UHGV virus genome: UHGV-1725451
Source: a virus
Reading direction: 5' to 3' (one strand)
DNA: 14,876 bases
Part shown: positions 963 to 14,876 of the stretch, piece after piece
Layout: the number at the start of each line of letters is the position of its first letter
Position numbering within the stretch: position 1 is the first letter of the stretch
Program-made: the position numbers and the translations under genes
Notes under the pieces: generated by a model
Told to the model about the DNA's origin: nothing
The model's database searches: none
What the model saw: only the letters and a program-made list of their open reading frames with translations

Positions 963-1125
963 GATTCCTCCTTGCTGCCAGTCGCAACCATTTTTTATCA
1001 ACCAGGCTAGCGGTATATCCGAGCAGTGTTGGTATTTCGGATGGCTTCAGCTCAGGCTTACGCTTACGACGATTTGATACTCTGTAGATGTGTCCGTTCA
1101 TGACACGAATAAGCGGTGTAGCCAT
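955..1125 (-). CDS. ninE: NinE-family protein (56 aa)
   Basis: Hand translation gives [56 protein letters not shown]. Its start overlaps the ybcN stop (TAATG). Below the ORF-track size cutoff. Confidence 0.7.
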   Translation of the reverse strand: MATPLIRVMNGHIYRVSNRRKRKPELKPSEIPTLLGYTASLVDKKWLRLAARRNHG

Positions 1126-1580
1126 TACGCCTCCTGCTTGTCGCGGAGCAGCTGGAACTCGCAGCTCTGCGGAATAGTCAGGTGGCAGCCAATATTCACC
1201 GCCCAGGCTTCAACCTTACACAGGAAGACATACATCTCTCCGGTATCAAGATCGGAGGTATGGCGTAACGACTGGATAGTGGTGATATCACCGGTTACGA
1301 CATCAACCAGGTCTTTGGTTTCATAACCGAGATATGTGTGTTTGAGAGCATCTTTTACCCAAGCTGGAGTGGCGAACGTTTTACCCCTGCTGATGAGGTA
1401 TTCACTGATTTCGCTGTACCACATGTGGCTGAGTGCATTCTGGGAAAGACTGCGTTTCTCACGCCACGGTTTAAGCACCATGCGAAAGCATTTGCCCTCC
1501 TCCAGATAAGGCTGGATCTGCCGACCGATAGCGGTGAAGTTGCCGCGATGTAATTTGATGCCGTCTTGTGAGAGGTTCAC
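1125..1580 (-). CDS. ybcN: NinB/Orf-family recombination protein (YbcN)
   Basis: 151-aa [58 protein letters not shown]..., matching the lambda NinB / DLP12 YbcN family. Confidence 0.8.
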
Positions 1581-1701
1581 GCTTCACCTCCGCAGAGGTC
1601 AAACGCTAGATGCAAAGAATTGCAGGTGCATTTCTGCATCTGTGAAGGGAGAAGAGAGTTTGGATTGTATGTGCGCATAAACGTCCCCGTTTAGCGCAGA
1701 A

Positions 1702-1730
1702 GTCACCGGAGTTGTTCAGGCTCCGGTGAC
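1702..1730. repeat. perfect 10-bp GC-rich inverted repeat (GTCACCGGAG / CTCCGGTGAC) with a 9-nt spacer
   Basis: Read directly from the sequence. Lies between ybcM (3' end) and ybcN (5' end). No U-tract follows on either strand, so it is not a canonical intrinsic terminator. Confidence 0.8.
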
Positions 1731-1794
1731 ATAATTATGCCGTGTTGATTTCCCAAAATCAAAATCGATAGAATTGCTCCTTCTTAAAACACTT

Positions 1795-2592
1795 TTACTC
1801 TCTGGAAGCTTTTCTTATCTCTCTTGGTGTTATATTAAAACGATTATGAAATCTTTCAGTAAAACGAGAAGGACACTTATAACCATTTTCTCTGGCAATC
1901 TCGCTTATAGGTTTTACCGTCGTTTGTATAGCAGACAACGCATTATTTAACCTCACATCGTCCAGTATACTTTGGAAACTTACCCCCTCGCTTGCTAGAC
2001 GGCGATGTAATGTAGAAACAGAAATGTAGAGATATCGAGCAACCTTGTTTGCTGTCCATTTTGTGCCGGGTTCGGATAGCAGCAGGTTATAACAACGACT
2101 TATCAATGATTGTTTACTATATGATAAAAGTAAATGATTAACATGATTCACTCCTAACGAAAGTAGAACGCCCATTGCTAAGTGCTCCTGAATTTTAGTT
2201 GAGAAGCCTCGGGAAACAGATGTTTTTAGTTGCTCCCAACAATATATTAACTCAGGATTCTGAGGTAAAAAGAAACTTGTTTTGTTACGTATTTGATCAG
2301 TTACCGTATAAAGTTTTTGGAAACTCTCAATTAAATCAATGGGTAAGTAAAGCATTTCTGCAAGATAAAGCCCTGCTTCAGGATAATTCTCAATATAAAA
2401 TTCATAACCACAAGGAAATAATATTATTTGATTATTATCAACAGTTAAAGTATGCGTCTCCCAATTGATAACTTTCTTTCCCTGACGGATACGACACAAA
2501 GCTGGCATAAGAGGCTTAACCCTATGAATCTCATGATGTTTATGCATCCGTATTTCTTCGATCTTTAAGTTAGTCTTACCTCTTGCCAGCAT
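1795..2592 (-). CDS. ybcM: AraC/XylS-family transcriptional regulator (YbcM-like)
   Basis: 265-aa ORF with a C-terminal AraC-type HTH region (...[33 protein letters not shown]). Low-GC coding sequence. Confidence 0.85.
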
Positions 2593-2601
2593 ACTCTCAC
2601 C

Positions 2602-3153
2602 CTACTTTATCTCATAAACTGGTGTTATCTCAGCGGTTGCGATTTTATTAGCATTAAGCATATAACCAACTAACGCTCCGCTGGAGTTAGAATCTACAGG
2701 AATCTTTTCAGTTTTTAGAGCCCATACTTTAAACTGGTAATGATGTGGTTTATCTCCTTTAGGAGGACACGCGCCACCAAACCCAGCATAGCCAAAATCA
2801 TTTCGGCCTTGAACAGCACCAGTCGGCAGTTTTGTTCCATCACGTCTCCCTGCATCAACGGGCAAATATGTTATTGTTGCTGGAATATTAACAACAGTCC
2901 AATGCCACCAACCACTGCCTGTAGGTGCATCTGGATCATATACAGTTACGGCAAAGCTTTTGGTACCTTCAGGAACACCAGACCAGGTTAATGAGGGCGA
3001 TGTATTACCACCTTCACACCCAAATCCAGAAAAGACATGAGACGTTGTAAGTTGCTCTCCTGTTTTTATTTCATTACTAGTGACCTGAAATGCTGCAGCC
3101 TGCGCAGAAAATGTTATGAATGCCAATACAGTTGAAACGATAAGTGTTTTCAT
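2602..3153 (-). CDS. ybcL: PEBP/YbcL-family (UPF0098) secreted protein
   Basis: 183-aa ORF with an N-terminal signal peptide (MKTLIVSTVLAFITFSAQAAA) and PEBP-like motifs (YDPDAP, HHYQFKVWAL). Sits 9 bp upstream of ybcM, so the pair is probably an operon. Confidence 0.85.
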   Translation of the reverse strand: MKTLIVSTVLAFITFSAQAAAFQVTSNEIKTGEQLTTSHVFSGFGCEGGNTSPSLTWSGVPEGTKSFAVTVYDPDAPTGSGWWHWTVVNIPATITYLPVDAGRRDGTKLPTGAVQGRNDFGYAGFGGACPPKGDKPHHYQFKVWALKTEKIPVDSNSSGALVGYMLNANKIATAEITPVYEIK

Positions 3154-3369
3154 AAAAACCTCTTTGTTATGACCTATCGTTATTTTATTTGATATTCCTT
3201 TATCTCATTATGCATAAAGGCGCAATTTTTATGCAAAAGCAATCACAATTGTACCCCCAACCCAATTATTTGCCACAATATACACAAAGCACATTGATAC
3301 TATCTAAAAACTCTGCTTTATTATTAGTAATACCTACGAAAGTCGGTGTTATTTTTTAACCTATCATTC

Positions 3370-3419
3370 AAAATACGTGACATACACCATTTTGCTCATA
3401 ATAATTTGTCACGTATTTT
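3370..3419. repeat. perfect 13-bp inverted repeat AAAATACGTGACA (3370-3382) / TGTCACGTATTTT (3407-3419) around a 24-bp AT-rich spacer
   Basis: Read directly from the sequence in the ybcK-ybcL intergenic region. Forms a symmetric 50-bp site. Confidence 0.85.
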
Positions 3420-3617
3420 CAGTATTTGAATCTGCGACCAAGAGTTCTCACCTGACAAATGATTAAGATTGTATAGCTCATTTACTACCCCAATACAGCC
3501 GTACAAAACTCGCTTGTGGGAGCAAACAAAGTAATTACCCATTAAGTTTCGTCAAAGATAATTAATTCTGTCTTGCACTTTATCACCATAGCATAACTTA
3601 AAATCCGAGATCATTAT

Positions 3618-5144
3618 TTAGAAATAAATCTCACCATCAACCATATATTTGAGAGCACTTATCGCCTGCTGGGCGGATATTACTTTCATTAAAGGATAGT
3701 GTTTAAAAACAATGCCATTCATAAAATAAATATCACAGGTTTTATTATCCGTATTAATTATGATTTTTTCGAATGTTTTATAGGCAAGTGTACGGCATAA
3801 CTCTCGTCCATTTTTACTGGTTAAGTCAATAGCATAAAAATCACTGAATGAATTTACACCTTTACTCTTCAAAGTTTTCAATGATACCGAAGCCCTTCGT
3901 AATTCCTTATCTAATAGTCTTATTTTCTCTGCTATAGCGGTAACTTCAGGCGCGACAGACAATGCAACGATTAAATTATTAATTTTCATCTGAAGCTCAA
4001 TAATTTTTAACTCTAAAGTTTCATTAGCATCTTTCTTGTTTTCAACTGGTTGAATTTTGCTACAATTAAAAAGCAATTCATTAATGATATTATAATCAAC
4101 CAAATCTCTTTTTATTGATGGCCTGTCACATCGATGTAATCTTCTCATCGGACAAACATAATAGCCATGCAAACTTCCAGATACCGCATGAACAATCATG
4201 GTATTACCACAAGCCTCACACTTCATAACTGTTCGAAGTAGATTTATTAGCATAGGATTCTTGCTACTATTGCTAATACCAAAAGGTGCCAACCGAATTT
4301 CCTGTACAGCGTAAAACAAATCATCTGATATGACTCTGGGATAATAGCCAGCGATTTCACTTATCCCTTTCCCTCTTGCACGATATGAAGGTACGCATAT
4401 ACCTATCAGAGCTTTATTCGCTAATAATTTTTCAATTACAGAAGGTCCCCATGCACTTTCTTTTCCTGAGAAATTCTTTACAGCATGATCATTTAAATAC
4501 TTGGCTATTGCATTCAATGAGCGCCTTTCCATCCTGAGTTTAAAAATTAGCTCAATAGTTTTCACCCTGTCGGGGTCTGGAACAAAAGCCGTTCTTTTGT
4601 CATCTAAGGAGAGCCATCTCGGACAAGACGCCGTCATAATCGTACCTGATTCCAGTGCATCCTGCCGTTTTTTCTTCCATGATAATTTAACCCGACTTGA
4701 CTTTATCTCGCTTTCTTCATTTGCCCTTTGTGCTATAAGTATGGCTTTTATTAATGAATATGGCTCATTCAAAGAGTCAATATTATAGACTGTATTGTCG
4801 CAAAGAGTTATAACATCAATACCGTGATTCAAAATCAATTTCAGACGTTCAATCGCTTCACCGACTTTTTCTCTTGAAAGTCTGTCCAGACTTTCAACTA
4901 ACAATGTAGTTCCTGGCAATATATAACCATGCTCTATAGCATCTAAAAATTCCGAAAAAGCTCCTGATTGTGCATGCTTTCCTTTGAATGCACTTAATCC
5001 TAAATCTTCATATGTTATGGTATCAAGATAATAATCACTATTTACCTTTAACCATTCAGCAATAAGTCTTCTCTGTCGGTTTAATGAGTCACCAGACATC
5101 TGACCTGGTGATGAAAATCGCATATATGCTATGGCTTTTTTCAT
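3618..5144 (-). CDS. ybcK: large serine recombinase (resolvase/invertase catalytic domain, recombinase domain, Cys-rich zinc ribbon), YbcK-like
   Basis: 508-aa ORF. N-terminus AIAYMRFSSPGQ...LLVESLDRLSRE is typical of the serine-recombinase catalytic domain. A C-terminal cysteine cluster (CEACGN...YYVCPMRRLHRCDRP) is present. Confidence 0.85.
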   Translation of the reverse strand: MKKAIAYMRFSSPGQMSGDSLNRQRRLIAEWLKVNSDYYLDTITYEDLGLSAFKGKHAQSGAFSEFLDAIEHGYILPGTTLLVESLDRLSREKVGEAIERLKLILNHGIDVITLCDNTVYNIDSLNEPYSLIKAILIAQRANEESEIKSSRVKLSWKKKRQDALESGTIMTASCPRWLSLDDKRTAFVPDPDRVKTIELIFKLRMERRSLNAIAKYLNDHAVKNFSGKESAWGPSVIEKLLANKALIGICVPSYRARGKGISEIAGYYPRVISDDLFYAVQEIRLAPFGISNSSKNPMLINLLRTVMKCEACGNTMIVHAVSGSLHGYYVCPMRRLHRCDRPSIKRDLVDYNIINELLFNCSKIQPVENKKDANETLELKIIELQMKINNLIVALSVAPEVTAIAEKIRLLDKELRRASVSLKTLKSKGVNSFSDFYAIDLTSKNGRELCRTLAYKTFEKIIINTDNKTCDIYFMNGIVFKHYPLMKVISAQQAISALKYMVDGEIYF

Positions 5145-5342
5145 GGTGACACCTGCTAACGTATGCTTTTATAAACCTTAGTGGTGGGATATAATTTTTG
5201 TTTAATTTTTATTTAAAAAGACAATTAAGGTCACATTATCTTGAATATACAACAATAATCGTATTGCAATTTTCTTACGCCATAATCTTGAAAGCACAAA
5301 AGAATACATAAAAAATAAAGACATTAACAAAAAGCATAAAAC

Positions 5343-5368
5343 GAGGCTCATATAAATATAAGAGCCTC
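5343..5368 (-). terminator. putative intrinsic terminator downstream of emrE
   Basis: 7-bp stem GAGGCTC/GAGCCTC with a 12-nt loop, followed on the minus strand by a T-rich run (TTTATGCTTTTTGTT), about 30 nt after the emrE stop. Confidence 0.5.
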
Positions 5369-5398
5369 CATATTTTAGTCGTTTAGAAACAAATTATT

Positions 5399-5731
5399 TT
5401 AATGTGGTGTGCTTCGTGACAATAAATTAATAACCAACACACCGGCACAAATCAACATCATGCCTATAATAGCTGGCAGGTCCAGCCGTTGGTCGAAAAG
5501 TCCCCATGACAGTAAGCTAATCAGGACAATACCGACTCCTGACCAGATAGCATAAGCAATCCCTGTAGGAATATAAGCCAGCGTCTGAGCTAATAACCAG
5601 AATGATGCACAATAACAAATAATTGTACCAACAGATGGCCATAACCGTGTAAAACCTTCTGAAAACTTCATTAAGGTTGTACCAATGACCTCTGCAAGTA
5701 TTGCACCACCAAGATAAATATAAGGGTTCAT
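5399..5731 (-). CDS. emrE: SMR-family multidrug efflux transporter EmrE (110 aa)
   Basis: ORF 5399-5785 contains MNPYIYLGGAILAEVIGTTLMKFSEGFTRLWPSVGTIICYCASFWLLAQTLAYIPTGIAYAIWSGVGIVLISLLSWG.... The true start is the internal Met (MNPYIYL), preceded by AGGAAAG. Confidence 0.85.
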   Translation of the reverse strand: MNPYIYLGGAILAEVIGTTLMKFSEGFTRLWPSVGTIICYCASFWLLAQTLAYIPTGIAYAIWSGVGIVLISLLSWGLFDQRLDLPAIIGMMLICAGVLVINLLSRSTPH

Positions 5732-5746
5732 AGCATATTCTTTCCT

Positions 5747-5781
5747 GTTCAAACTGGAGAGAATTGTACTACAGTTTGAAC
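5747..5781. repeat. perfect 10-bp inverted repeat GTTCAAACTG / CAGTTTGAAC with a 15-nt spacer
   Basis: Read directly from the sequence between the ren stop (5799) and the emrE start (5731), immediately upstream of the emrE ribosome-binding site. Confidence 0.8.
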
Positions 5782-5798
5782 TCAACTCACCTGTTTCA

Positions 5799-6101
5799 TC
5801 ATTGTGTACCCATTGATGTTCTTTTATATACCCTCAATACCCGTTTCATCGCGGCACTCTGGCGACACTCCTTAAAAATCAGATTCGTGCTCACCTTTCC
5901 TTCCCGTTCTTCTCTGGTAGCGAACCGGTAATACACCGTTCGCCAGACCTTACCATCAACGACCAGGATTCCTGCCCGCGCCATTTTAGCCGCAGCCTGA
6001 TTTATGCTGGTTACGGTTGCGCCTGTTACCGCGGCAACGTCCTGTGCACAGAAGCTCTTATGCGTCCCCAGGTAATGAATAATTGCCTCTTTGCCCGTCA
6101 T
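5799..6101 (-). CDS. ren: Ren-like protein (lambda ren homolog)
   Basis: 100-aa ORF MTGKEAIIHYLGTHKSFCAQDVAAVTGATVTSINQAAAKMARAGILVVDGKVWRTVYYRFATREEREGK..., closely matching lambda Ren as I recall it. Start overlaps the P stop. Confidence 0.75.
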   Translation of the reverse strand: MTGKEAIIHYLGTHKSFCAQDVAAVTGATVTSINQAAAKMARAGILVVDGKVWRTVYYRFATREEREGKVSTNLIFKECRQSAAMKRVLRVYKRTSMGTQ

Positions 6102-6799
6102 ACACTTGCTCCTTTCAGTCCGAACTTAGCTTTAATTTCTGCGATCTTCGCCAGAGCCTGTGCACGATTTAGAGGTCTACCGCCCATAACAGGAAGTTGT
6201 TTTACTGGTTCAGGTATCGTCTCACCACGGTTAATTCGCGCTGTCATACAGGTCAGTTCATCGGCAGCCTTGCGCCGTAATTCCGCGTCAGTCAGCGCAT
6301 TGGCCCGCATGTTCTGGTACAAGTTGGTAACCAACCAGTAATGCGCGTTCGATTTCCACGGATAAGACTCTGCATCCGGATACAGGCCACGCTTCCGGCA
6401 ATACTCGTAAACCATATCAACCAGCTCGCTGACGTTTGGCAGCCCGGCGTTAACAGATGCTTCTTCCCGGCACCAGGCGACAAACTGCCCGGGTGATGGC
6501 AGGAATGGTCGATTCTGCCGACGGGCTACGCGCATTCCAGCGTTAACCTGTTCCATTGTGGTGATCCCGTTTTCCCGGAAAGCCAGAACCCACTGGCGGC
6601 GGATTTCGTTCAGTTCATTCTGGTCACGGTTAGCCAGGCTCGCCGGGAAAGTTGCCAGTAACTGGCTGAACACACCGTTGATGATCTGCGCTACCTGCTG
6701 TACCTGTGGCTTTTCGTCGTACTGTTCCGGCATGTTGTTGGCGATCCGGCGCATCTGCTCACAGTCAAAGTTAACCATCTGTGCGGCGATGTTTTTCAT
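6098..6799 (-). CDS. P: replication protein P (DnaB helicase loader), lambda P-like
   Basis: 233-aa ORF MKNIAAQMVNFDCEQMRRIANNMPEQYDEKPQVQQVAQIINGVFSQLL...AKFGLKGASV, near-identical to my recollection of lambda P. Confidence 0.9.
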   Translation of the reverse strand: MKNIAAQMVNFDCEQMRRIANNMPEQYDEKPQVQQVAQIINGVFSQLLATFPASLANRDQNELNEIRRQWVLAFRENGITTMEQVNAGMRVARRQNRPFLPSPGQFVAWCREEASVNAGLPNVSELVDMVYEYCRKRGLYPDAESYPWKSNAHYWLVTNLYQNMRANALTDAELRRKAADELTCMTARINRGETIPEPVKQLPVMGGRPLNRAQALAKIAEIKAKFGLKGASV

Positions 6800-7725
6800 A
6801 GCTCCACCCCGTAAATCCAGTCAGTGTTCGTCAGGTCGAGTTTTGGTTTGCCGGCTGTCACGCCAGCCTGTTGCTTGTTTCGGTTGATTTCGAGCTGGGT
6901 CCACTTGTCGCGGAGTTTGGCCGGACTTAGCACGTTACCGGACCAGAAGTTGTCCTGGCATGCCCAGCGGAACAGCACGCACATGTCGCGGTGGTTACGT
7001 CCGTCACGTTCACGCATCAGGCGGATATCGTTAGCCCACCCTGCAAAATTCGGTTTTCTGGCTGATGGCGCGATGGTCTTCACCATGTCAAACATCCACT
7101 CTGCGGCGGTCAGGTCTTCTGCTGTCCCCCACTTGCTGCCGCTCTGAATTGCAGCATCCGGTTTCACCACAGGAAGATCGTTTTCTGGTTGGTCAGAGGA
7201 TTCGCCAGAATTCTCGGACGAAAAAGGTTTTATATTGTCTTTTGTTAGTTTGTCTTTTGTGTTTACCTGATTCGGGTAAACGCCTTTACCTGATTTGGGT
7301 AAACTTTTTTTACCTGATTCAGGTAAATTTACCTCTTTCAGGTAAACTTTATTTTTCTTACCTGATTCGGGTAATGTTGACCATTCACTGACCACATTAT
7401 TAATGCCGGTATTCCGCCCGCTCTGAATAAAAATCCCACGCTTTACCAGAACACTTTTTGCAGCAGAACACTTGTGCGGCAATATCCCGGTTAATTCGGA
7501 AAGTTGCTCGTTGCTAACCCAATCCAGTTTTTTATTAAAGCCATATGTTTTGCGCATGACAGCCAGAAAGACCAGAAGCTGGTGCTGTGTTAATCCGGCC
7601 AGCATCACAGCTTCCAGCAACTCATTTGCAATGCGCGTATAACCATCATCGAGATCTGCCACGCGCGGCTCCTTTTGTGCCGCATCCGGCACTGGAAAAT
7701 TGAATATCTCAGCAGTGTTTGCCAT
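6796..7725 (-). CDS. O: replication initiator O (lambda O-like, divergent sequence) containing ori iterons
   Basis: ORF 6796-7815. Likely start is the ATG at 7723-7725 (MANTAEIFNF..., preceded by GGGAGGAAT). The conserved N-terminal motif VADLDDGYTRIANELLEA matches lambda O. The C-terminal region interacts with P in lambda. Iterons lie inside the gene. Confidence 0.85.
   Translation of the reverse strand: MANTAEIFNFPVPDAAQKEPRVADLDDGYTRIANELLEAVMLAGLTQHQLLVFLAVMRKTYGFNKKLDWVSNEQLSELTGILPHKCSAAKSVLVKRGIFIQSGRNTGINNVVSEWSTLPESGKKNKVYLKEVNLPESGKKSLPKSGKGVYPNQVNTKDKLTKDNIKPFSSENSGESSDQPENDLPVVKPDAAIQSGSKWGTAEDLTAAEWMFDMVKTIAPSARKPNFAGWANDIRLMRERDGRNHRDMCVLFRWACQDNFWSGNVLSPAKLRDKWTQLEINRNKQQAGVTAGKPKLDLTNTDWIYGVEL
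7263..7376. repeat. replication origin iterons: five ~19-bp copies of TTACCTGATTCGGGTAAAC-like repeats inside O
   Basis: Copies at 7263-7281, 7286-7304, 7310-7328, 7329-7347 and 7358-7376, each an internal palindrome (TACC...GGTA). An AT-rich tract follows downstream on the minus strand (7215-7260). Same layout as ori-lambda. Confidence 0.8.
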
Positions 7726-7811
7726 AATTCCTCCCGCAATGAGTGTGTTACGATTTGCACCTGAAAGTCGGTTCTGTTCCCGCAGACCGACTTTCGCCAT
7801 TTTTGAACCTG

Positions 7812-8351
7812 TCATATTGCCCCCAGCATGGTGGTGACCATCGCCATCAATGGACCAGCCAGATCCGGGTCCACTCGAAACATCGACACAATGCCTTCAC
7901 TCATCTCCTTCAGTTTCTGGTGGCGTGGTGCGTTGAGAATGACCGCCTGCTTTGCCTCACTGAGTTCCTTTTCCATTTCAGCCAGCCGAGCCATGAAGCT
8001 ATCCTGCTCAACCAGGTGGCCGCGATATTCCAGCGGTAGTACCGCCAGAATTGCCGGGGTCAGTTCACGCACGTTATTTCGGTATTTTTCAGAATCGAAT
8101 TTGTTATCGAGGAAGCGGAACAGCTTCTGGCGTGCACGACTGACATCATCAGGAAAATCGATGGTGCCGCCGCCCTGTGCTCGATACTCATTCACAATGA
8201 GTGCGGCAACTACATCCTGATTATCTTCAGCAGACCAAGCGCGGACGGCATCACGGATTTTTTCGTGGCCTGGCACCTGTTTTGTTTGAGAACGATTTAT
8301 CACCGCAGTCGGGCTAAATCCGCTAGTCTGTTGGTATGTAAGTGGTTGCAT
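7812..8351 (-). CDS. YdaT-family / CII-position regulatory protein (function uncertain)
   Basis: 179-aa ORF with a good ribosome-binding site (AAAGGAG), located between the cro-like gene and O, where lambdoid phages carry cII. Resemblance to Rac prophage YdaT-type proteins is from memory and not verified. Confidence 0.55.
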   Translation of the reverse strand: MQPLTYQQTSGFSPTAVINRSQTKQVPGHEKIRDAVRAWSAEDNQDVVAALIVNEYRAQGGGTIDFPDDVSRARQKLFRFLDNKFDSEKYRNNVRELTPAILAVLPLEYRGHLVEQDSFMARLAEMEKELSEAKQAVILNAPRHQKLKEMSEGIVSMFRVDPDLAGPLMAMVTTMLGAI

Positions 8352-8420
8352 AATTGACTCCTTTAGTTTGAATTGACTGTTAAGTTGATTGCTTATTGTT
8401 AAAGAGCGTGAAATGGAAAT

Positions 8421-8651
8421 TTAAGCTGCGTTCTTTTCGGTGTGTGGAAACAACTTCGGAAGATCCGGGCGAATCTGGTATGCCTTCACTACTCCACCAG
8501 TAGCCGTAACAATGCTGCCGACATGTTCAGGGGATACCTTTGCTTTGTTGTGAAGCCACTTATAGACGGCCTGCTGTGAAACTTCGCAAGCAGCGCCCAG
8601 TTTCTTTTGTGAACCAACGATATTGATCGCTGTTTTGATAGCTGGGTTCAT
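8421..8651 (-). CDS. Cro/YdaS-like small HTH DNA-binding protein
   Basis: 76-aa ORF MNPAIKTAINIVGSQKKLGAACEVSQQAVYKWLHNKAKVSPEHV... with an HTH-like segment. GGAGG ribosome-binding site. Transcribed divergently from the repressor. Confidence 0.7.
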   Translation of the reverse strand: MNPAIKTAINIVGSQKKLGAACEVSQQAVYKWLHNKAKVSPEHVGSIVTATGGVVKAYQIRPDLPKLFPHTEKNAA

Positions 8652-8678
8652 AACAACCTCCGTGGTTAATTTGAATCA

Positions 8679-8749
8679 AGATTAAAACCATGGTTGTTTT
8701 TAGTCAACAACCATTTTCGTTTGATGGAATAAAACCTTGGTTGTACATT
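8679..8749. promoter_or_regulatory. divergent pR/pRM-like promoter region with operator inverted repeats (OR)
   Basis: Minus-strand candidate: -35 TTGACT (8702-8707), 17-bp spacer, -10 TAATCT (8679-8684), driving the cro-like gene. Plus-strand candidate: -35 TTGATG (8721-8726), 17-bp spacer, -10 TACATT (8744-8749), ending about 7 nt before the repressor ATG (possibly leaderless). Operator-like palindromes AAAACCATGGTTGTTTT (8684-8700), ACAACC (8707-8712) and AAAACCTTGGTTGT (8731-8744) overlap the spacers. Confidence 0.5.
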
Positions 8750-8755
8750 TGGACT

Positions 8756-9445
8756 ATGAAAACAACACTCTCAGAAAGACTTAAAGAAGCCAGATTAGCG
8801 CGAGGCCTTACACAAAAGGCGCTTGGGGATTTGGTCGGGGTTAGCCAAGCTGCTATTCAGAAAATCGAAACAGGGAAAGCTAATCAAACAACTAAAATCG
8901 TGGAGATCGCGAACGCTTTGGGTGTGCGCGCAGAATGGTTATCTTCTGGCGTTGGAAATATGTCAGACAGTACAGTGCAACCAATACAATCAACTGTCAG
9001 CCATTCCAAATACTTCAAGATTGACGTTCTTGATATAGAAGTCAGTGCTGGGCCGGGAGTCATCAACCGTGAGTTTGTAGAAGTTCTACGCTCGGTTGAG
9101 TACTCGTTTGACGATGCTCGTCATATGTTCGATGGTAGGAAGGCGGAAAATATCCGCATCATTAACGTGCGTGGTGACAGCATGTCAGGAACGATCGAAC
9201 CAGGTGATCTGCTGTTCGTTGATATCACAGTTAAATCTTTCGACGGTGATGGTATCTATGCGTTTCTGTACGACGACACAGCCCATGTAAAGCGCCTGCA
9301 AATGATGAAGGATAAGCTGCTGGTCATCTCTGATAACAAAAGCTACTCACCGTGGGACCCGATCGAGAAAGACGAGATGAACCGGGTGTTCATCTTCGGT
9401 AAGGTTATTGGGAGCATGCCGCAGACATATAGGAAGCATGGGTAG
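8756..9445 (+). CDS. cI: CI-type prophage repressor (N-terminal XRE-family HTH, C-terminal S24 LexA-like peptidase domain)
   Basis: ORF 8690-9445. Probable start MKTTLSERLKEARLARGLTQKALGDLVGVSQAAIQKIETGK (HTH). C-terminal GDSM serine motif (INVRGDSMSGTIEPGDLLFVD) and lysine (HVKRLQ) typical of autocleaving repressors. Confidence 0.85.
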   Translation: MKTTLSERLKEARLARGLTQKALGDLVGVSQAAIQKIETGKANQTTKIVEIANALGVRAEWLSSGVGNMSDSTVQPIQSTVSHSKYFKIDVLDIEVSAGPGVINREFVEVLRSVEYSFDDARHMFDGRKAENIRIINVRGDSMSGTIEPGDLLFVDITVKSFDGDGIYAFLYDDTAHVKRLQMMKDKLLVISDNKSYSPWDPIEKDEMNRVFIFGKVIGSMPQTYRKHG

Positions 9446-9566
9446 TACCAATTAAAAATTATCAACTGGGCATTGTGCTCATTCAGTAAAGAACTAATTC
9501 CTATCTTTGCTCTAGGTAGTAATATTAAGCCACCGCAATAATATCTTTACCTAACGGCGTAAGAAT

Positions 9567-9592
9567 CCCGGTCACCGTGCCGGGTTTTCTTT
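9567..9592 (+). terminator. putative intrinsic terminator after the repressor gene
   Basis: CCCGG(U)...(G)CCGGG stem of 5-6 bp followed by TTTTCTTTT. The stem is short, so confidence is limited. Confidence 0.4.
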
Positions 9593-9706
9593 TGCCCTCC
9601 CCTCATCACACACACCGTTAAAAAAACCACCATAACCTCGCTTCAGTTATCGCTATGCGATTCAAGTCACAAAATAAATCCATCCTAAATACAACCAGTT
9701 ATATCT

Positions 9707-9763
9707 AAAACAACCAATAAAACAACTTTTGTTGTTGACGGTAAAACAACTATAGTTTTAAAT
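9707..9763 (+). promoter_or_regulatory. pL-like promoter with OL-type operator repeats
   Basis: Candidate -35 TTGACG (9735-9740), 17-bp spacer, -10 TTAAAT (9758-9763). Three direct AAAACAAC copies (9707-9714, 9719-9726, 9743-9750) and an AACAAC-TTTT-GTTGTT inverted repeat (9721-9736) share the ACAAC(C)/GGTTGT half-site seen at OR. Confidence 0.45.
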
Positions 9764-9956
9764 AAGTTCATCGCAACAACACAACGATACGGCAACCACC
9801 TGATTCACCGTTGCGATGACCGCTTAGATCCGCAGTTTGAATTTCAGCAGGCTTCGGGGAGTGCGAGGGGTGAAACGGACGCGTGAACGTCGGTGTGACC
9901 AGCTGAAATCAACTCAACATTTCATACCTTAGTCGCTTCAACGAGGCGACTTAGTT

Positions 9957-10247
9957 ATGACAACCGGCGGCCATCCACCGCCTGAATACGCGCAGAAGTC
10001 TCTATATGTTCAGCAGCCCAGCTTACGGGCAGGAGTTTTTATGGTTCATCAACATTACGGAACGCAGACCGTTAATCGAGGTGCGGTCATGCCAGGAATG
10101 CTGGTCAAACACAAAGATGGTACCTGGACTGCATCAGCTAATTTACGCGGACGGCTTTATCTGCATCGCGGCATCGAGCGCACTTATACCCGTGATTTGC
10201 TCGTGGAAGTTTTTCTCGACGGACGCGGTAACGGCCTGAATCGCTAA
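9957..10247 (+). CDS. hypothetical protein, first gene of the left operon (96 aa from 9957; alternatively 68 aa from ATG 10041, which has the better ribosome-binding site AGGAG-N5-ATG)
   Basis: ORF-track frame [13 protein letters not shown]...[69 protein letters not shown] recognise no homolog. Occupies the position where lambda has N-ral-sieB-cIII-kil. Confidence 0.4.
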
Positions 10248-10322
10248 TCCCCTTTCCTGTTTTCCTAATCAGCCTGGCATTTCGCGGGCGATATTTTCAC
10301 AGCCATTTTCAGGAGTTCAGCC

Positions 10323-10619
10323 ATGAACGCTTATTACATTCAGGATCGTCTTGAGGCTCAGAGCTGGGCGCGTCACTACCAGCAGATCGCCCGTGAAGAG
10401 AAAGAGGCAGAACTGGCAGACGACATGGAAAAAGGCCTGCCCCAGCACCTGTTTGAATCGCTATGCATCGATCATTTGCAACGCCACGGGGCCAGCAAAA
10501 AAGCCATTACCCGTGCGTTTGATGACGATGTTGGGTTTCAGGAGCGCATGGCAGAACACATCCGGTACATGGTTGAAACCATTGCTCACCACCAGGTTGA
10601 TATTGATTCAGAGGTATAA
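10323..10619 (+). CDS. gam: Gam (GamS form), RecBCD inhibitor
   Basis: 98-aa [101 protein letters not shown], near-identical to lambda GamS as recalled. Confidence 0.85.
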
Positions 10620-10624
10620 AACGG

Positions 10625-11410
10625 ATGAGTACAGCACTCGCAACGCTGGCAGGGAAGCTGGCTGAACGTGTCGGCATGGATTCTGTCGACCCACAGGAAC
10701 TGATCACCACTCTTCGCCAGACGGCATTTAAAGGTGATGCCAGCGATGCGCAGTTCATCGCATTGCTGATCGTCGCCAACCAGTACGGCCTTAATCCGTG
10801 GACGAAAGAAATTTACGCCTTCCCTGATAAGCAGAACGGCATTGTTCCGGTGGTGGGCGTTGATGGCTGGTCCCGCATCATCAATGAAAACCAGCAGTTT
10901 GATGGCATGGACTTTGAGCAGGACAATGAATCCTGTACATGCCGGATTTACCGCAAAGACCGTAATCATCCGATCTGCGTTACCGAATGGATGGATGAAT
11001 GCCGCCGCGAACCATTCAAAACTCGCGAAGGCAGAGAAATCACGGGGCCGTGGCAGTCGCATCCCAAACGGATGTTACGGCATAAAGCCATGATTCAGTG
11101 TGCCCGTCTGGCCTTCGGATTTGCTGGTATCTATGACAAGGATGAAGCCGAGCGCATTGTCGAAAATACTGCATACACTGCAGAACGTCAGCCAGAACGC
11201 GACATCACTCCGGTTAACGATGAAACCATGCAGGAGATTAACACTCTGCTGATCGCCCTGGATAAAACATGGGATGACGACTTATTGCCGCTCTGTTCCC
11301 AGATATTTCGCCGCGACATTCGCGCATCGTCAGAACTGACACAGGCCGAAGCAGTGAAAGCTCTTGGATTCCTGAAACAGAAAGCCACTGAGCAGAAGGT
11401 GGCAGCATGA
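10625..11410 (+). CDS. bet: Bet (Red-beta) single-strand annealing recombinase
   Basis: 261-aa [70 protein letters not shown]..., near-identical to lambda Bet as recalled. Confidence 0.9.
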
Positions 11411-12087
11411 CACCGGACATTATCCTGCAGCGTACCGGGATCGACGTGAGAGCTGTCGAACAGGGGGATGATGCATGGCACAAATTACGGCTCGGCGTCA
11501 TCACCGCTTCAGAAGTTCACAACGTGATAGCAAAGCCCCGCTCAGGAAAGAAGTGGCCTGACATGAAAATGTCCTACTTCCACACCCTGCTAGCTGAGGT
11601 TTGCACCGGTGTGGCTCCGGAAGTTAACGCTAAAGCGCTGGCCTGGGGAAAACAGTACGAGAACGACGCCAGAACCCTGTTTGAGTTCACTTCCGGCGTA
11701 AATGTTATTGAATCCCCGATCATCTATCGCGACGAAAGTATGCGCACCGCCTGCTCTCCCGATGGTTTATGCAGTGACGGCAATGGCCTTGAGCTGAAAT
11801 GCCCGTTTACCTCCCGGGATTTCATGAAATTCCGGCTCGGTGGTTTCGAGGCCATAAAGTCGGCTTACATGGCCCAGGTGCAGTACAGCATGTGGGTGAC
11901 GCGAAAAGATGCCTGGTACTTTGCCAACTATGACCCGCGTATGAAGCGTGAAGGCCTGCATTATGTCGTGATTGAGCGGAATGAAAAGTATATAGCGAGT
12001 TTTGACGAGATGGTGCCGGAGTTCATCGAAAAAATGGACGAGGCACTGGCTGAAATTGGTTTTGTATTTGGGGAGCAATGGCGATGA
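11407..12087 (+). CDS. exo: Exo (Red-alpha) 5'-3' exonuclease
   Basis: 226-aa [71 protein letters not shown]..., near-identical to lambda Exo as recalled. ATGA overlap with bet. Confidence 0.9.
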
Positions 12088-12266
12088 AACATCCTCACGA
12101 TAATATCCGCGTAGGCACGATCACTTTCGTCTACTCCGTTACGAAGCGAGGCTGGGTATTTCCCGGCCTTTCTGTTATCCGAAATCCCCTGAAAGCACAG
12201 CGGCTGGCTGAGGAGATAAATAATAAACGGGGAGCTGTATGCACAAAGCATCTCCCGTTGAGTTAA
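12078..12266 (+). CDS. lambda orf60a-like small protein
   Basis: 62-aa [65 protein letters not shown] overlapping the exo stop. Position and sequence resemble lambda orf60a (from memory). Confidence 0.6.
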
Positions 12267-12430
12267 GAACGAGTATCGAGATGGCACATAGCCTCGCTCA
12301 AATTGGAGTCAGGTTTGTGCCAATACCAGTAGAAACAGACGAAGAATTTCATACGTTAGCCGCATCCCTTTCACAAAAGCTGGAAATGATGGTGGCGAAA
12401 GCAGAAGCAGATGAGAGAGACCAGGTATGA
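12239..12430 (+). CDS. lambda orf63-like small protein
   Basis: 63-aa [66 protein letters not shown]. Confidence 0.6.
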   Translation: MHKASPVELRTSIEMAHSLAQIGVRFVPIPVETDEEFHTLAASLSQKLEMMVAKAEADERDQV

Positions 12431-12510
12431 CAACCACGGAATGCATTTTTCTGGCAGCGGGCTTCATATTCTGTGTGCTTATGCTTGCCGACATGGGACT
12501 TGTTCAATGA
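12427..12510 (+). CDS. putative 27-aa hydrophobic mini-protein, translationally coupled on both sides
   Basis: Hand translation gives MTTTECIFLAAGFIFCVLMLADMGLVQ*. Its ATG overlaps the orf63-like stop (ATGA) and its stop overlaps the next gene's ATG (ATGA). Purine-rich tract upstream. One predicted transmembrane helix. Confidence 0.3.
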   Translation: MTTTECIFLAAGFIFCVLMLADMGLVQ

Positions 12511-12722
12511 CACCTCAGCAGGAAAACGCCCTTCGCAGCATTGCCCGTCAGGCTAATTCTGAAATCAAAAAAGCCAGACAGCAGTTTCCGGATAAAAACG
12601 TCGATGACATTTGCCGTAGCGTACTGAAGAAGCACCGCGAAACGGTAACGCTGATGGGATTCACACCGACTCATTTAAGCCTGGCAATCGGCATGTTAAA
12701 CGGCGTCTTTAAGGAACGATGA
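12507..12722 (+). CDS. lambda orf61-like small protein (71 aa)
   Basis: MTPQQENALRSIARQANSEIKKARQQFPDKNVDDICRSVLKKHRETVTLMGFTPTHLSLAIGMLNGVFKER, the in-frame portion of ORF 12411-12722 that starts at the coupled ATG. Confidence 0.5.
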   Translation: MTPQQENALRSIARQANSEIKKARQQFPDKNVDDICRSVLKKHRETVTLMGFTPTHLSLAIGMLNGVFKER

Positions 12723-12820
12723 ACATGAAAAGCAAAATCATCAGGGAGCTACAGGCTCCTTTTTTATTATTCGCATTCACCCTCAAGCGTATTAACCAAC
12801 AATTCAGGGATTAATGAAAG

Positions 12821-13039
12821 ATGGCAGACATCATTGATTCAGCATCAGAAATTGAAGAATTACAGCGCAACACAGCAATAAAAATGCGCCGCCTGAACCA
12901 CCAGGCTATATCTGCCACTCATTGTTGTGAGTGTGGCGATCCGATAGATGAACGAAGACGCCTGGCCGTTCAGGGTTGTCGGACTTGTGCAAGTTGCCAG
13001 GAGGAGATCGAACTTAAGAACAAACAATGGGGACTGTGA
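12821..13039 (+). CDS. TraR/DksA-family C4 zinc-finger protein (phage TraR-like)
   Basis: 72-aa ORF with CxxC-N17-CxxC (CCECGDPIDERRRLAVQGCRTCASC) and an acidic N-terminus, typical of TraR/DksA-like RNA-polymerase secondary-channel binders. Confidence 0.7.
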   Translation: MADIIDSASEIEELQRNTAIKMRRLNHQAISATHCCECGDPIDERRRLAVQGCRTCASCQEEIELKNKQWGL

Positions 13040-13086
13040 TGGCCTCAAAGCAGCAAATTTCAACATCGTCCAACTGAGGTGTAAAA

Positions 13087-13365
13087 ATGTTCAGAATCAT
13101 TTTTCCTAACACCTGGTACGTCGACCACCACGGCGCTCCCTGCAAAATCCTGCGTTCTACCCACAACAAAGTTCACTACATCCGAAAAGGCAGAACATGT
13201 ATCGCCAGCATGTTCCGCTTTAATCATGACTTTGAACCTGTGAATAAAGCTGATGCAGATCGGATAGCAGAAGAGATCGAAACGGCAGAACACATTAAGA
13301 AGTTACGTGACATGCGTTCAAAAAGCAGAGGTAACCATGGAATCATACAGCCTCACACTCGATGA
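13087..13365 (+). CDS. hypothetical protein (92 aa)
   Basis: ORF MFRIIFPNTWYVDHHGAPCKILRSTHNKVHYIRKGRTCIASMFRFNHDFEPVNKADADRIAEEIETAEHIKKLRDMRSKSRGNHGIIQPHTR. Same strand and operon context as neighbours. No homolog recognised. Confidence 0.45.
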   Translation: MFRIIFPNTWYVDHHGAPCKILRSTHNKVHYIRKGRTCIASMFRFNHDFEPVNKADADRIAEEIETAEHIKKLRDMRSKSRGNHGIIQPHTR

Positions 13366-13455
13366 GGCCTGACAGTTTCTCAAGATCGCCAGATCTACCG
13401 CAACCGACAATAACCGCCACTGAACGGTTTATTTCTTTATGGAGAAACCATACAA

Positions 13456-13686
13456 ATGACAATCAATATTCAGCCGATTCTAATAAACCGCGAGCGTGTT
13501 CAGGAGATGCTTGGTGGTATCTCCAGAACTACTTTTTACCGGAAGCGTAAACAGTGGGAGCAATCAGGGACACCATTCCCTCGGGAAGTGGAAGAAATCC
13601 ACCCACCGAAAGGCGGCGCCCTCTTTCGCTACAAGGAAGTTATTCAGTTTTGCAAAGATAAAGGATTGATTTCCGAACACTCTTGA
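13456..13686 (+). CDS. xis: excisionase/AlpA-like small DNA-binding protein (Xis-family winged helix)
   Basis: 76-aa ORF ...ERVQEMLGGISRTTFYRKRKQWEQSGTPFPREVEEIHPPKGGALFRYKEVIQFCK... follows the Xis/AlpA pattern (I/LS..T.YR...fP...gg..w). Adjacent to the integrase. Confidence 0.6.
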   Translation: MTINIQPILINRERVQEMLGGISRTTFYRKRKQWEQSGTPFPREVEEIHPPKGGALFRYKEVIQFCKDKGLISEHS

Positions 13687-14672
13687 ATTTTCTTAGCCCA
13701 TAATTCTGCTGCGTCCTGCTGCTCGGGGATGTAGTCATACTGGTCATAAACAGCCAGCATCCCCGTGAGCTTATGCCCGAGAATTTTCTCCGAAACATGA
13801 GGTGCTACTCCAAGTTCAGCCATTTTTGTTTTGCACGTTCTGCGCAGATCGTGCAATGACCAGTGCTCGCCCCCCATAACATCTTCTACCTGTTCTGCAA
13901 TAGAAATTAGGGTGCTGGCAGACATTGGGCGATTTTCCTGTAACTTAGCCGGAGGAAATACGATTGACAGATCAGGGTATAGATCAAATACCTGCTGCAA
14001 ATAATCTGCTGCGAGTTTTGAAATACCGCGAACAAATCGCTTACGCGTTTTTGAGTTCTCTTTCGGTATAGTCCATTCTCTAGACTTCAGATCAAAATCA
14101 GTCTTCTTAGCCAACCGCAATTCAACACCACGACAACCAGTTAACGCAACAATTCGAATAAACATTTTGTTTTGCCACGACATTTTCGTTTTGTCGATGG
14201 CATTCCAGAATGCGCCTATCTCAACATCGTTAAGAAAACGTTCGCCATTATTAGGTCTACTGCCGATATCATTAATCTCAAGAAGCATCAGTGCATTTGA
14301 TGTTATGCGTTTTCTGCGTAACGCATAGCGGATCACTTGCTTCATCTTCACCAGTACATTTCCCGCCTGTACGGGTGACCCACCTTTTGTTATGCGAATG
14401 AATATTTGCTCCCACTCTACAGGACTCATTTCATCTGCAATCAGCTTACCGTAATTGTCGGTGATGTGAAGTTTCAGCATCCGCTTCCAGTATTCGTACT
14501 TCACCATCTCTTTTACTGAAGGAGTATCAAACCACTCGTCAACTAGGGTACTGATGCTTGGGGAACTTGATGCAATATCTTTGGCTTTCTTCCTTTGCAT
14601 GGCTGGGTCTTTACCCTTCTCCAACCACCCTTTACACTCTTCCAATGCATCGCGAGCTTCCTTAAGCGACAT
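13644..14672 (-). CDS. int: tyrosine recombinase / phage integrase (catalytic and core-binding domains); N-terminal arm-binding region is upstream but frame-disrupted
   Basis: 342-aa ORF with the HDLRRT motif and C-terminal ...LAVYDQYDY (tyrosine region). The same frame continues upstream without a start codon (NTLQETRGGSDGGGLSVRISPKGLITFQYRYRFNGKPARLKLGTYGK-MSLKEARD) to a stop at 14814-14816. A candidate N-terminus MLPSETMIWQPEFTDKTLSRKPG starts at ATG 14858-14860 in another frame. Confidence 0.85.
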   Translation of the reverse strand: MSLKEARDALEECKGWLEKGKDPAMQRKKAKDIASSSPSISTLVDEWFDTPSVKEMVKYEYWKRMLKLHITDNYGKLIADEMSPVEWEQIFIRITKGGSPVQAGNVLVKMKQVIRYALRRKRITSNALMLLEINDIGSRPNNGERFLNDVEIGAFWNAIDKTKMSWQNKMFIRIVALTGCRGVELRLAKKTDFDLKSREWTIPKENSKTRKRFVRGISKLAADYLQQVFDLYPDLSIVFPPAKLQENRPMSASTLISIAEQVEDVMGGEHWSLHDLRRTCKTKMAELGVAPHVSEKILGHKLTGMLAVYDQYDYIPEQQDAAELWAKKIQECSEINPLSLQN

Positions 14673-14876
14673 CTTCCCGTACGTTCCGAGCTTTAACCTG
14701 GCGGGTTTTCCATTGAAACGATAGCGGTATTGAAAGGTGATAAGTCCCTTCGGGCTGATCCTGACAGAAAGTCCGCCTCCGTCTGAACCGCCCCGGGTTT
14801 CCTGGAGAGTGTTTTATCTGTGAACTCAGGCTGCCAGATCATCGTTTCCGATGGAAGCATAATAAGCTTTTTCTGC

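Follow-up and report, generated by a model that had tools for sequence, protein, structure and literature searches.

The emrE, ybcK, ybcL and ybcM genes of Escherichia coli K-12 lie in the prophage DLP12, between ren and ylcH-ybcN, and have been annotated there for decades. In this study, we analyzed a cargo island with these genes in the virus genome UHGV-1725451, a stretch of 14,876 nucleotides (the window) that covers the minus-strand early region of a lambdoid prophage. Gene content, order and orientation from ren to ylcH-ybcN are identical in the window and in K-12 DLP12, and window positions 3000–6400 show 99.5% DNA identity to K-12 strains, apart from the K-12 IS3 in ren. Judged by this identity, the block is the long-annotated DLP12-type accessory ("moron") cluster emrE-ybcK-ybcL-ybcM and is already known; our finding re-describes that locus and leaves the known picture unchanged. 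While ren of K-12 DLP12 is split by IS3, ren and the early region of the window are intact, yet the prophage of the window is defective.

Phage morons are additional genes with aberrant composition lodged among the backbone genes of lambdoid phages. The cluster resembles them, as seen against the ren-tR2-ninB region of lambda, in its backbone position, its presence or absence among close relatives, its foreign composition, and its likely benefit to the lysogen. It departs from the moron concept in that the slot of the window holds a three-module composite including a recombinase gene, and in that its own signals are documented only in part, with a predicted emrE terminator and with the YbcM site and the terminator t_ybcK taken from the literature. 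The large serine integrases, such as those of PhiC31 and Bxb1, share with YbcK their architecture, catalytic residues, zinc ribbon, and coiled coil. However, the identity of YbcK to solved serine integrases is 14–19%, its gene lies off the prophage border, and the prophage already encodes a tyrosine integrase together with an excisionase. The defense hotspots of P2-like phages and P4-like satellites (PMC9122126) combine a fixed position and sharp edges with many cargos, like the slot described here, but they concern another phage family and another position, and the four island proteins of the window have no PADLOC match.

As by-products, the analysis places the slot at base-pair resolution between the ren terminus and the −35 element of the nin promoter, with defense-type genes in relatives, and assigns emrE, ybcL and ybcM, usually deemed ordinary E. 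coli genes, to a stripped prophage remnant beside fliE in about half of the complete genomes. A further by-product is a conserved serine recombinase in inducible coliphages, which is possibly an integrase tool or has a phage-side function. EmrE exports quaternary cations and YbcL of uropathogenic E. coli (UPEC) suppresses neutrophil migration; their carriage by plaque-forming phages makes these traits transferable.

The slot between ren and the nin promoter

The cargo island occupies window positions 1764–5825 on the minus strand, and these limits were set by comparative junctions. An earlier note, made from the letters of the window alone, had described an AT-rich, compositionally distinct block containing genes for an AraC-family regulator, a PEBP-family protein, a 508-aa large serine recombinase and EmrE, and both descriptions hold. 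The GC content of the island is 0.362, compared with 0.500 for positions 1–1763 and 0.484 for 5826–14876, and the lowest-GC stretch of 4062 bp in the whole window begins at 1751. The GC content at third codon positions is 0.26–0.34 in the four island genes and 0.46–0.61 in rusA, ybcO, ybcN, ren, P, and O. Pfam and NCBIfam profiles confirmed the gene content, and the names that PGAP gives to ybcM, ybcL, ybcK, ylcJ, emrE and ren in a genome matching the window at 100% agree with it. The end coordinate of 5785 proposed earlier was wrong, being the TTG start of an over-extended open reading frame (ORF); the true emrE is listed in Table 1.

The downstream edge was located by comparison with nine loci, six in phages and three in chromosomal prophages, that have the flanks of the window but different cargo. 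The window diverges from all nine at 1763/1764, which is the first base of the −35 hexamer TTGATT on the minus strand. Across 10 aligned loci, the DNA is conserved up to this hexamer and unrelated past it. The phage 82 record (X92588) annotates a putative −35, a putative −10, and a "possible regulator-binding site" at the matching elements. On the other side, the upstream edge lies at about 5821–5835, within the last ren codons, where nine cargo types and lambda converge within approximately 10 bp; the DNA homology to lambda (93.8%) stops at window position 5826. The gene ybcN adjoins every cargo type with 94–98% identity. Its match to Pfam NinB (22.3 bits) is under the cut-off of 23.8.

At least nine other unrelated cargos use both edges of the slot. 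These include an acyltransferase and a lipoprotein in PhiR30_1, PD-lambda-1 and Rha in PhiR26_1, Rha with small ORFs in PhiR5_1 and IdasGreatGrand, and, in further cases, a TIR-domain protein or sets of small hypothetical proteins. In lambda, ninB is the neighbor of ren, and the 73 bp that separate them contain a GC-rich hairpin followed by a T-run; we take this to be tR2, an annotation that the lambda record does not carry. Comparison of related prophages thus agrees with the earlier view of a foreign cargo island between ren and a ninB-like gene, since ren abuts ninB in lambda and the other relatives carry alternative cargo. Neither a uniform composition nor the presence of this block in all relatives was observed. 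The island had also been placed where lambda carries nin genes, but it lies at the tR2 position upstream of these genes and replaces none of them. On these comparisons, the site is a generic variable slot of lambdoid phages, bounded by the 3′ end of ren and the −35 element of the nin promoter.

An exact empty site with a ybcN-type flank was sought with a chimeric query joining window positions 1300–1763 and 5836–6300, and no single-piece match was present among the matches listed. In 111 genomes, the inserts were short enough to join the two halves, the smallest seen being about 775 bp, and no phage record covered at least 80% of the query. Only lambda is truly empty at the slot, but with a different ninB.

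The slot may be a defense hotspot of lambdoid phages. None of five proteins compared with the PADLOC defense models gave a match. Observed in relatives were a TIR-domain gene in the slot of E. coli EH10-18-47 (L011 766–1578), the PD-lambda-1 gene of PhiR26_1 (L004 3942–5444), and a SIR2-domain gene in the early-right region of a related phage (L020 5755–7695). A second copy of the nin leader and hairpin (window 1610–1763; 80–85%) was present within the cargo of PhiR26_1 (L004 3545–3699) and IdasGreatGrand (L007 3614–3742). These diverged copies inside the cargos suggest that cargo accumulates through unequal exchange at the nin leader.

Modules, phage carriage and a ybcK-less remnant

Twelve E. 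coli lambdoid phage genomes encode YbcK with 97.6–100% identity, including PhiR70_1, PhiR68_2, PhiR34_1, Perceval, 4A7, Lambda_4C10, and Turner. The PhiR70_1 record, which is in prophage order and begins with int-xis, contains int, xis, and a full late-gene set. The cargo therefore travels in phages that have been sequenced as complete phage genomes. Perceval- and Turner-type phages share window positions 3577–6900 (emrE, ybcK, ren, and P) at 96–98% identity and have ybcL-ybcM replaced, by an opposite-strand alpha/beta hydrolase in one type and by the ninB-proximal cargo of IdasGreatGrand in the other. Turner is the same as IdasGreatGrand up to a break within a truncated rha-like gene.

We sampled 80 IMG/VR contigs encoding YbcK with at least 97% identity. 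The emrE gene is directly upstream of ybcK in every contig that reaches far enough (78 of 80 by our tally). By our grouping of pattern classes, five alternative fillers separate the ybcK stop codon from the nin leader: the window type in 30 contigs, a rha fragment with other DNA in about 17, the Turner type in 13, the hydrolase type in nine, and a short filler of about 320 bp in six. Because Perceval- and Turner-type phages lack ybcL-ybcM, and because the fillers vary while emrE is constant, the island is a mosaic of three separately exchanged modules, namely emrE, the ybcK segment, and ybcL-ybcM. Genes with at least 97% identity to ybcK are always directly downstream of emrE-ren-P, in 1382 genomes, the 12 phages, and all IMG/VR contigs reaching far enough.

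A different arrangement is present in E. coli 536 (L019, NC_008253.1 1913500–1917360), where the gene order is yedK-porin-ybcM-ybcL-emrE-fliE. This remnant consists of three collinear pieces of a PhiR70_1-like phage with 89–92% identity. The first contains the porin and the 3′ end of Q (91%); the second extends from the ybcN start codon to 155 bp upstream of ybcL (window 1578–3308, L019 5579–7309; 89%); and the third extends from emrE to the last 9 nt of ren (window 5392–5808; 92%). Missing are the region from Q to ybcN, everything left of ren, and a 2083-bp segment (3309–5391) including ybcK. The remnant also keeps the nin promoter, hairpin, and ylcH leader, besides the last 9 nt of ren. The fliE-type remnant occurs in 2622 of 5426 complete E. 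coli genomes, and emrE linked to ybcK in 1382. In the IMG/VR contig IMGVR_UViG_3300029728_000157 (L113, 542–6400), cI-O-P-ren-emrE runs directly into ybcL-ybcM and the leader, followed by the 3′ end of Q. This contig lacks ybcK and the ybcN-to-Q region and, with 98.9% identity to E. coli 536, resembles an intermediate step in the decay that gave the fliE-type remnant. The segment 3577–5391, along with 3309–3576, is absent from both the remnant and this contig.

The remnant lineage certainly lost other DNA, from Q to ybcN, and further deletion is therefore a simpler reading of the 2083-bp gap than an old insertion. Selection in the remnant has kept four host-useful genes (porin, ybcM, ybcL, and emrE) and not ybcK. 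That the domesticated remnant drops ybcK while retaining host-useful genes suggests that ybcK serves the phage rather than the host.

YbcK, its relatives and the origin of the cluster

The catalytic domain (PF00239, 69.1 bits against a cut-off of 23.3), the recombinase domain (PF07508, 53.9 bits) and the zinc ribbon (PF13408, 33 bits) of YbcK all matched profiles above the Pfam cut-offs. The catalytic domain contains the motifs YMRFSS, with S11, and LDRLSR. Residues R9, S11, Q15, D87, R88, and R91 are invariant in 28 homologs down to 29% identity, as are four zinc-binding cysteines (309, 312, 331, and 339). The window and Perceval ybcK genes differ by 39 synonymous and 12 non-synonymous changes, giving a ratio of non-synonymous to synonymous rates (dN/dS) of 0.077, compared with 0.061 for the P gene. 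An AlphaFold2 model of YbcK has a mean predicted local distance difference test score of 80 and coiled-coil helices at residues 368–397 and 401–427. A Foldseek search with this model gave full-length matches to serine integrases in complex with attachment (att) sites, to PhiC31 and to Bxb1 (E values of 1e-18 to 1e-13), while phmmer of YbcK against PDB sequences gave no match. YbcK thus appears to be a catalytically intact large serine recombinase under purifying selection. In K-12, the untranslated leader of ybcK was reported to hold the Rho/NusG-dependent terminator t_ybcK, by which the level of ybcK mRNA is kept low (PMC4150792). With the terms used, our literature search found no report of YbcK activity; on a YbcK function or the slot, it turned up only this paper and general prophage reviews.

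Homologs of YbcK with 40–61% identity are present in Atlantibacter, Yersinia, Erwinia, Pantoea, Ewingella, Kluyvera, and Citrobacter, and are always solitary. Some lie in the early-right operon of lambdoid prophages, between replication genes and Q (L020/L034, L027, and L049). Others are the last gene past the tail fiber and tail-fiber-assembly genes at a prophage end (L013, L015, L017, L025, L026, and L043). The prophage-end relatives with 50–60% identity (Atlantibacter, Erwinia, Pantoea, and Ewingella) adjoin host DNA, such as ssrA/smpB, lepA, and others, and the Yersinia relative (L015) adjoins a second, P2-like prophage. Further relatives are located beside umuDC or dinI (L021, L028, and L035–L037), two of them still at a prophage end, on Pantoea and Duffyella megaplasmids (L030 and L031), or in a plasmid-like region of Citrobacter (L023). 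In three different contexts, L013, L020, and L021 share DNA only from 40–68 bp upstream of the start codon to the stop codon. Among flank motifs of the homologs, this upstream stretch of about 40–70 bp is weakly like that of the window, and nothing shared was found downstream. Diverged direct repeats bracket the recombinase block in L020 (9623–9851 and 12609–12831; the 5′ part of a DUF1367 gene, 229 bp, 82%) and in L049 (9281–9657 and 12216–12592; part of P, 380 bp, 75%). We searched the island for similar backbone-gene fragments and found none.

A position at the prophage end is usual for the serine integrases of temperate phages. YbcK may therefore descend from a phage integrase. Our best guess, held with low confidence, is that YbcK is an orphan phage integrase-type gene product that serves the phage and is lost with the backbone upon domestication. 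We consider it rather improbable that YbcK-type genes form a solitary recombinase clade specialized for temperate phages and plasmids of Enterobacterales, acting on a site directly 3′ of their own gene as single-gene hitch-hikers or cargo-capture devices. Several findings bear on this reading. The relatives sit only in phage cargo positions or on megaplasmids, always alone; the DNA from about 41 bp past the ybcK stop codon has five alternative contents in E. coli; the catalytic residues are invariant, and the gene is dropped, in a phage-like manner, from the domesticated remnant; and L013, L020, and L021 share just the gene, while L020 and L049 are bracketed by repeats of backbone genes.

We propose that the island is probably a cargo cluster in a slot that permits recombination; selection would determine the edges of the slot, and the modules would be exchanged via flanking homology. 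Cargo would be swapped by recombination in the conserved backbone, with O-P-ren on one side and leader-ylcH-ybcN on the other. The agents would be phage Red/Rad52-type recombinases (bet, exo, and gam are present in the window), acting between co-resident lambdoid phages or prophages, together with host recombination. Illegitimate joins would create the internal breakpoints of the island, and selection would trim the junctions to functional limits, at the points where ren ends and the nin promoter begins. In the lysogen, emrE and the YbcM-autoregulated ybcLM operon would act as lysogenic-conversion genes, while Rho-dependent termination would hold ybcK off. Upon induction, N-antiterminated pR transcripts would read through all four genes including ybcK, a read-through expected because the four genes are co-oriented with pR transcription. 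For lambda and DLP12, experiments have demonstrated Red-dependent exchange in a different region of the genome (PMC3945230).

Several points weigh against this proposal. The exchange mechanism is deduced from junction patterns and from published lambda × DLP12 crosses elsewhere in the genome, and the sharp junctions could also be compatible with an unrecognized site-specific process. The strong purifying selection on a recombinase without a known substrate lacks an explanation. The DNA just 3′ of ybcK is unusually variable, and the prophage-end relatives have their prophage–host border at the same 3′ position, a pattern to be expected of an att site there. The 2083-bp difference has breakpoints near ybcK and is either a deletion or an insertion. 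Finally, the statements on expression are based on K-12 literature and not on this strain.

The earlier note had suggested a nested mobile element or a module controlled by the recombinase. We found no terminal inverted repeats at candidate boundaries and a single context for ybcK in E. coli, and both slot junctions also occur in cargos without ybcK, with the island itself composed of three modules. Inverted-repeat symmetry at five candidate boundary pairs was not above the control, a comparison of low power because att half-sites are weakly symmetric. With no att-like ends found, with one context and with edges independent of ybcK, the idea of a nested element of the Tn4451/TnpX or SCC/Ccr kind is unsupported, and YbcK does not appear to make the island boundaries. 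A narrower version is that the ybcK segment (from about 3309 or 3577 to 5391) or emrE-ybcK is a small element inserted by YbcK into an older emrE-ybcL-ybcM cluster, the fliE-type arrangement being the empty site. The clean extra 2083 bp relative to E. coli 536 and L113, which starts 7 bp past the emrE stop codon and contains little besides ybcK, would fit such an insertion, as would an intact YbcK under selection, the solitary homologs elsewhere with gene-only sharing in L013, L020, and L021, and the repeats flanking the L020 and L049 blocks. However, the remnant and L113 carry an undoubted deletion from Q to ybcN, so that the ybcK gap may be a deletion too, and a chimeric query found ybcK-less cargo joined to ren-P in none of the 5426 complete genomes. 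Moreover, the inner ends lack inverted-repeat symmetry (12–13 of 22 matches, equal to the control mean), ybcK is never away from emrE in E. coli, and serine recombinases are not marked by long diverged direct repeats. An insertion of this kind is therefore unlikely.

We regard as highly unlikely that YbcK is a second integrase for the whole phage, allowing lysogeny at another site independently of the tyrosine integrase. The full integrase architecture of the YbcK model, including the coiled coil, and the relatives with 50–60% identity that are the last gene at prophage ends beside host DNA are compatible with it. Nevertheless, the same prophage ends beside the tyrosine integrase in 243 genomes, the PhiR70_1 record in prophage order starts at int-xis, and no sampled genome or viral contig has a prophage–host junction next to ybcK. 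The recombinases of the relatives could not be confirmed as integrases, the far ends of those prophages being unread. Serine recombinases of other subfamilies operate inversion or excision switches, and the long AT-rich non-coding regions of 464 and 254 bp that flank ybcK, one of them with a perfect 13-bp inverted repeat at 3370–3382 and 3407–3419, might likewise accommodate a switch by which YbcK inverts or excises a short adjacent regulatory segment to control the accessory genes. Against this, all sampled full-length E. coli matches and the 80 viral contigs are collinear without inverted variants, other ybcK carriers lack the segment with the inverted repeat, and no repeated sites bracket a promoter-bearing segment, which makes a switch extremely unlikely. 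The proposed cargo cluster in a recombination-permissive slot is thus the reading that we retain.

Features of the window and its prophage

The features of the island and its flanks are listed in Table 1.

Table 1 Coordinates of genes, segments and signals in and around the cargo island of the window
Feature	Position	Strand	Evidence or remark
ybcN, NinB-position gene, conserved backbone flank	1125..1580	-	NCBIfam PRK09741, 277 bits
ylcH/orf33, intact 33-codon ORF in nin leader	1577..1678	-	orf33 in X92588; hypothetical protein in RefSeq
Perfect 10-bp palindrome GTCACCGGAG N9 CTCCGGTGAC	1702..1730		RNA fold -19.2 kcal/mol, z = -4.4
Sigma-70-like nin-operon promoter TTGATT-17-CATAAT	1734..1762	-	Consensus scan; phage 82 putative -35/-10
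ybcM, AraC-family regulator, 265 aa	1795..2592	-	Pfam HTH_18, 61.5 bits; PGAP name
ybcL, periplasmic PEBP/RKIP-like protein, 183 aa	2602..3153	-	Pfam PBP, 143 bits; NCBIfam equivalog, 399.8 (cut-off 277)
ybcL upstream region	3154..3308	-	Kept with ybcL-ybcM in the ybcK-less remnant
268-bp non-coding segment, window-type arrangement only	3309..3576		Absent from 536 remnant, Perceval, and Turner
ybcK segment shared by every ybcK carrier (3′ flank of 41 bp, ybcK, and 5′ region of 247 bp)	3577..5391	-	96–98% in Perceval/Turner
ybcK, intact large serine recombinase, 508 aa	3618..5144	-	Pfam Resolvase, Recombinase, and Zn_ribbon_recom, all above thresholds
ylcJ, small ORF in ybcK leader	5202..5351	-	PGAP, mapped from L112 7702–7851
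Intrinsic-terminator-like hairpin after emrE, GAGGCTC N12 GAGCCTC with U-rich minus-strand tail	5343..5368	-	Fold z = -3.2
emrE, SMR multidrug efflux pump, 110 aa	5399..5731	-	NCBIfam NF042984, 237.2 bits (cut-off 226), residues 1–110 of 110
Perfect 10-bp hairpin, ren stop to emrE Shine-Dalgarno	5747..5781	-	Fold -13.4 kcal/mol, z = -1.1; no U-tail
ren	5799..6101	-	Last ~9 codons vary with cargo (twelve-way alignment)

All four island genes are co-oriented with pR transcription, and emrE also matches Pfam Multi_Drug_Res. In K-12, YbcM binds upstream of ybcLM as determined by chromatin immunoprecipitation with exonuclease digestion (ChIP-exo), and a ybcM deletant has an eight-fold survival defect after exposure to H2O2 (PMC8464067). 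The YbcL variant encoded by most UPEC strains suppresses the transepithelial migration of neutrophils, and the variant of laboratory and commensal isolates is inactive (PMC4810123). In view of these published effects, the earlier statement that ybcL-ybcM had no assigned role is outdated. Promoter-like sites were no more numerous than in shuffled sequences (17 vs 15.4). The terminator-like hairpin after emrE sits within the segment missing from the ybcK-less remnant.

The earlier note had pictured the island as flanked by two perfect 10-bp hairpins. Both stems exist, but they do not form a bracketing pair, since the one at 1702–1730 belongs to the conserved flank, at a distance of 33 bp from the island, and the one at 5747–5781 lies inside the island. 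The two were rejected as the ends of one element, their sequences being unrelated. The palindrome at 1702–1730 is near-invariant across 10 loci with different cargos, and its equivalent is labeled "possible regulator-binding site" in the phage 82 record; the hairpin at 5747–5781 has one stem mismatch in E. coli 536. Four perfect 10-bp hairpins occur in the window, compared with 0.34 expected from first-order Markov simulations of the window. The two others are at 4874–4897, within ybcK, and at 7763–7795, in the overlap of O and the YdaT-like gene. A scan of positions 1400–6300 against Rfam (E ≤ 1) gave no match; therefore, both hairpins fall outside the known RNA families, and emrE is not preceded by a riboswitch. 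The segment 3309–3576 is present in the window-type IMG/VR contigs. Its 13-bp inverted repeat, AAAATACGTGACA / TGTCACGTATTTT, with 24 nt between the arms, is about 220 bp upstream of ybcL and might serve as a site for a regulator or as the terminator of ybcK.

The gene order of the window on the minus strand is rusA, ybcO, ninE, ybcN, ylcH, ybcM, ybcL, ybcK, emrE, and ren, followed beyond ren by P, O, a YdaT-like "cII", a YdaS/Cro-like gene, a cI-type repressor gene, kil/gam/bet/exo, and a tyrosine integrase gene. The integrase, which had been recognized previously, was confirmed at 13644–14672. At least 80% of the whole window is present at about 100% identity in 243 complete genomes. The rusA gene is frameshifted, with a 93-aa ORF at 312–593, and is a pseudogene according to PGAP. 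In a matching genome (L112), the non-phage genes for a lipocalin and a YbgA family protein lie after Q, and the integrase gene adjoins espL1 instead of argU. Because of the frameshift in rusA, the non-phage genes after Q, and the position beside espL1, the prophage of the window is a defective relative of DLP12 at a different site.

The gene at the cII position (7812–8351) is YdaT-like (PF06254, 103 bits), and that at the cro position (8421–8651) is YdaS-like (PF15943, 62 bits). Both Pfam families are labeled as toxins, and PGAP uses the name "toxin YdaT domain-containing protein" where phage records use cII. The last 93 bases of the window (14784–14876) differ from all of the best-matching genomes, which align to 14783 only, and this stretch is probably the prophage–host junction just past the integrase gene.

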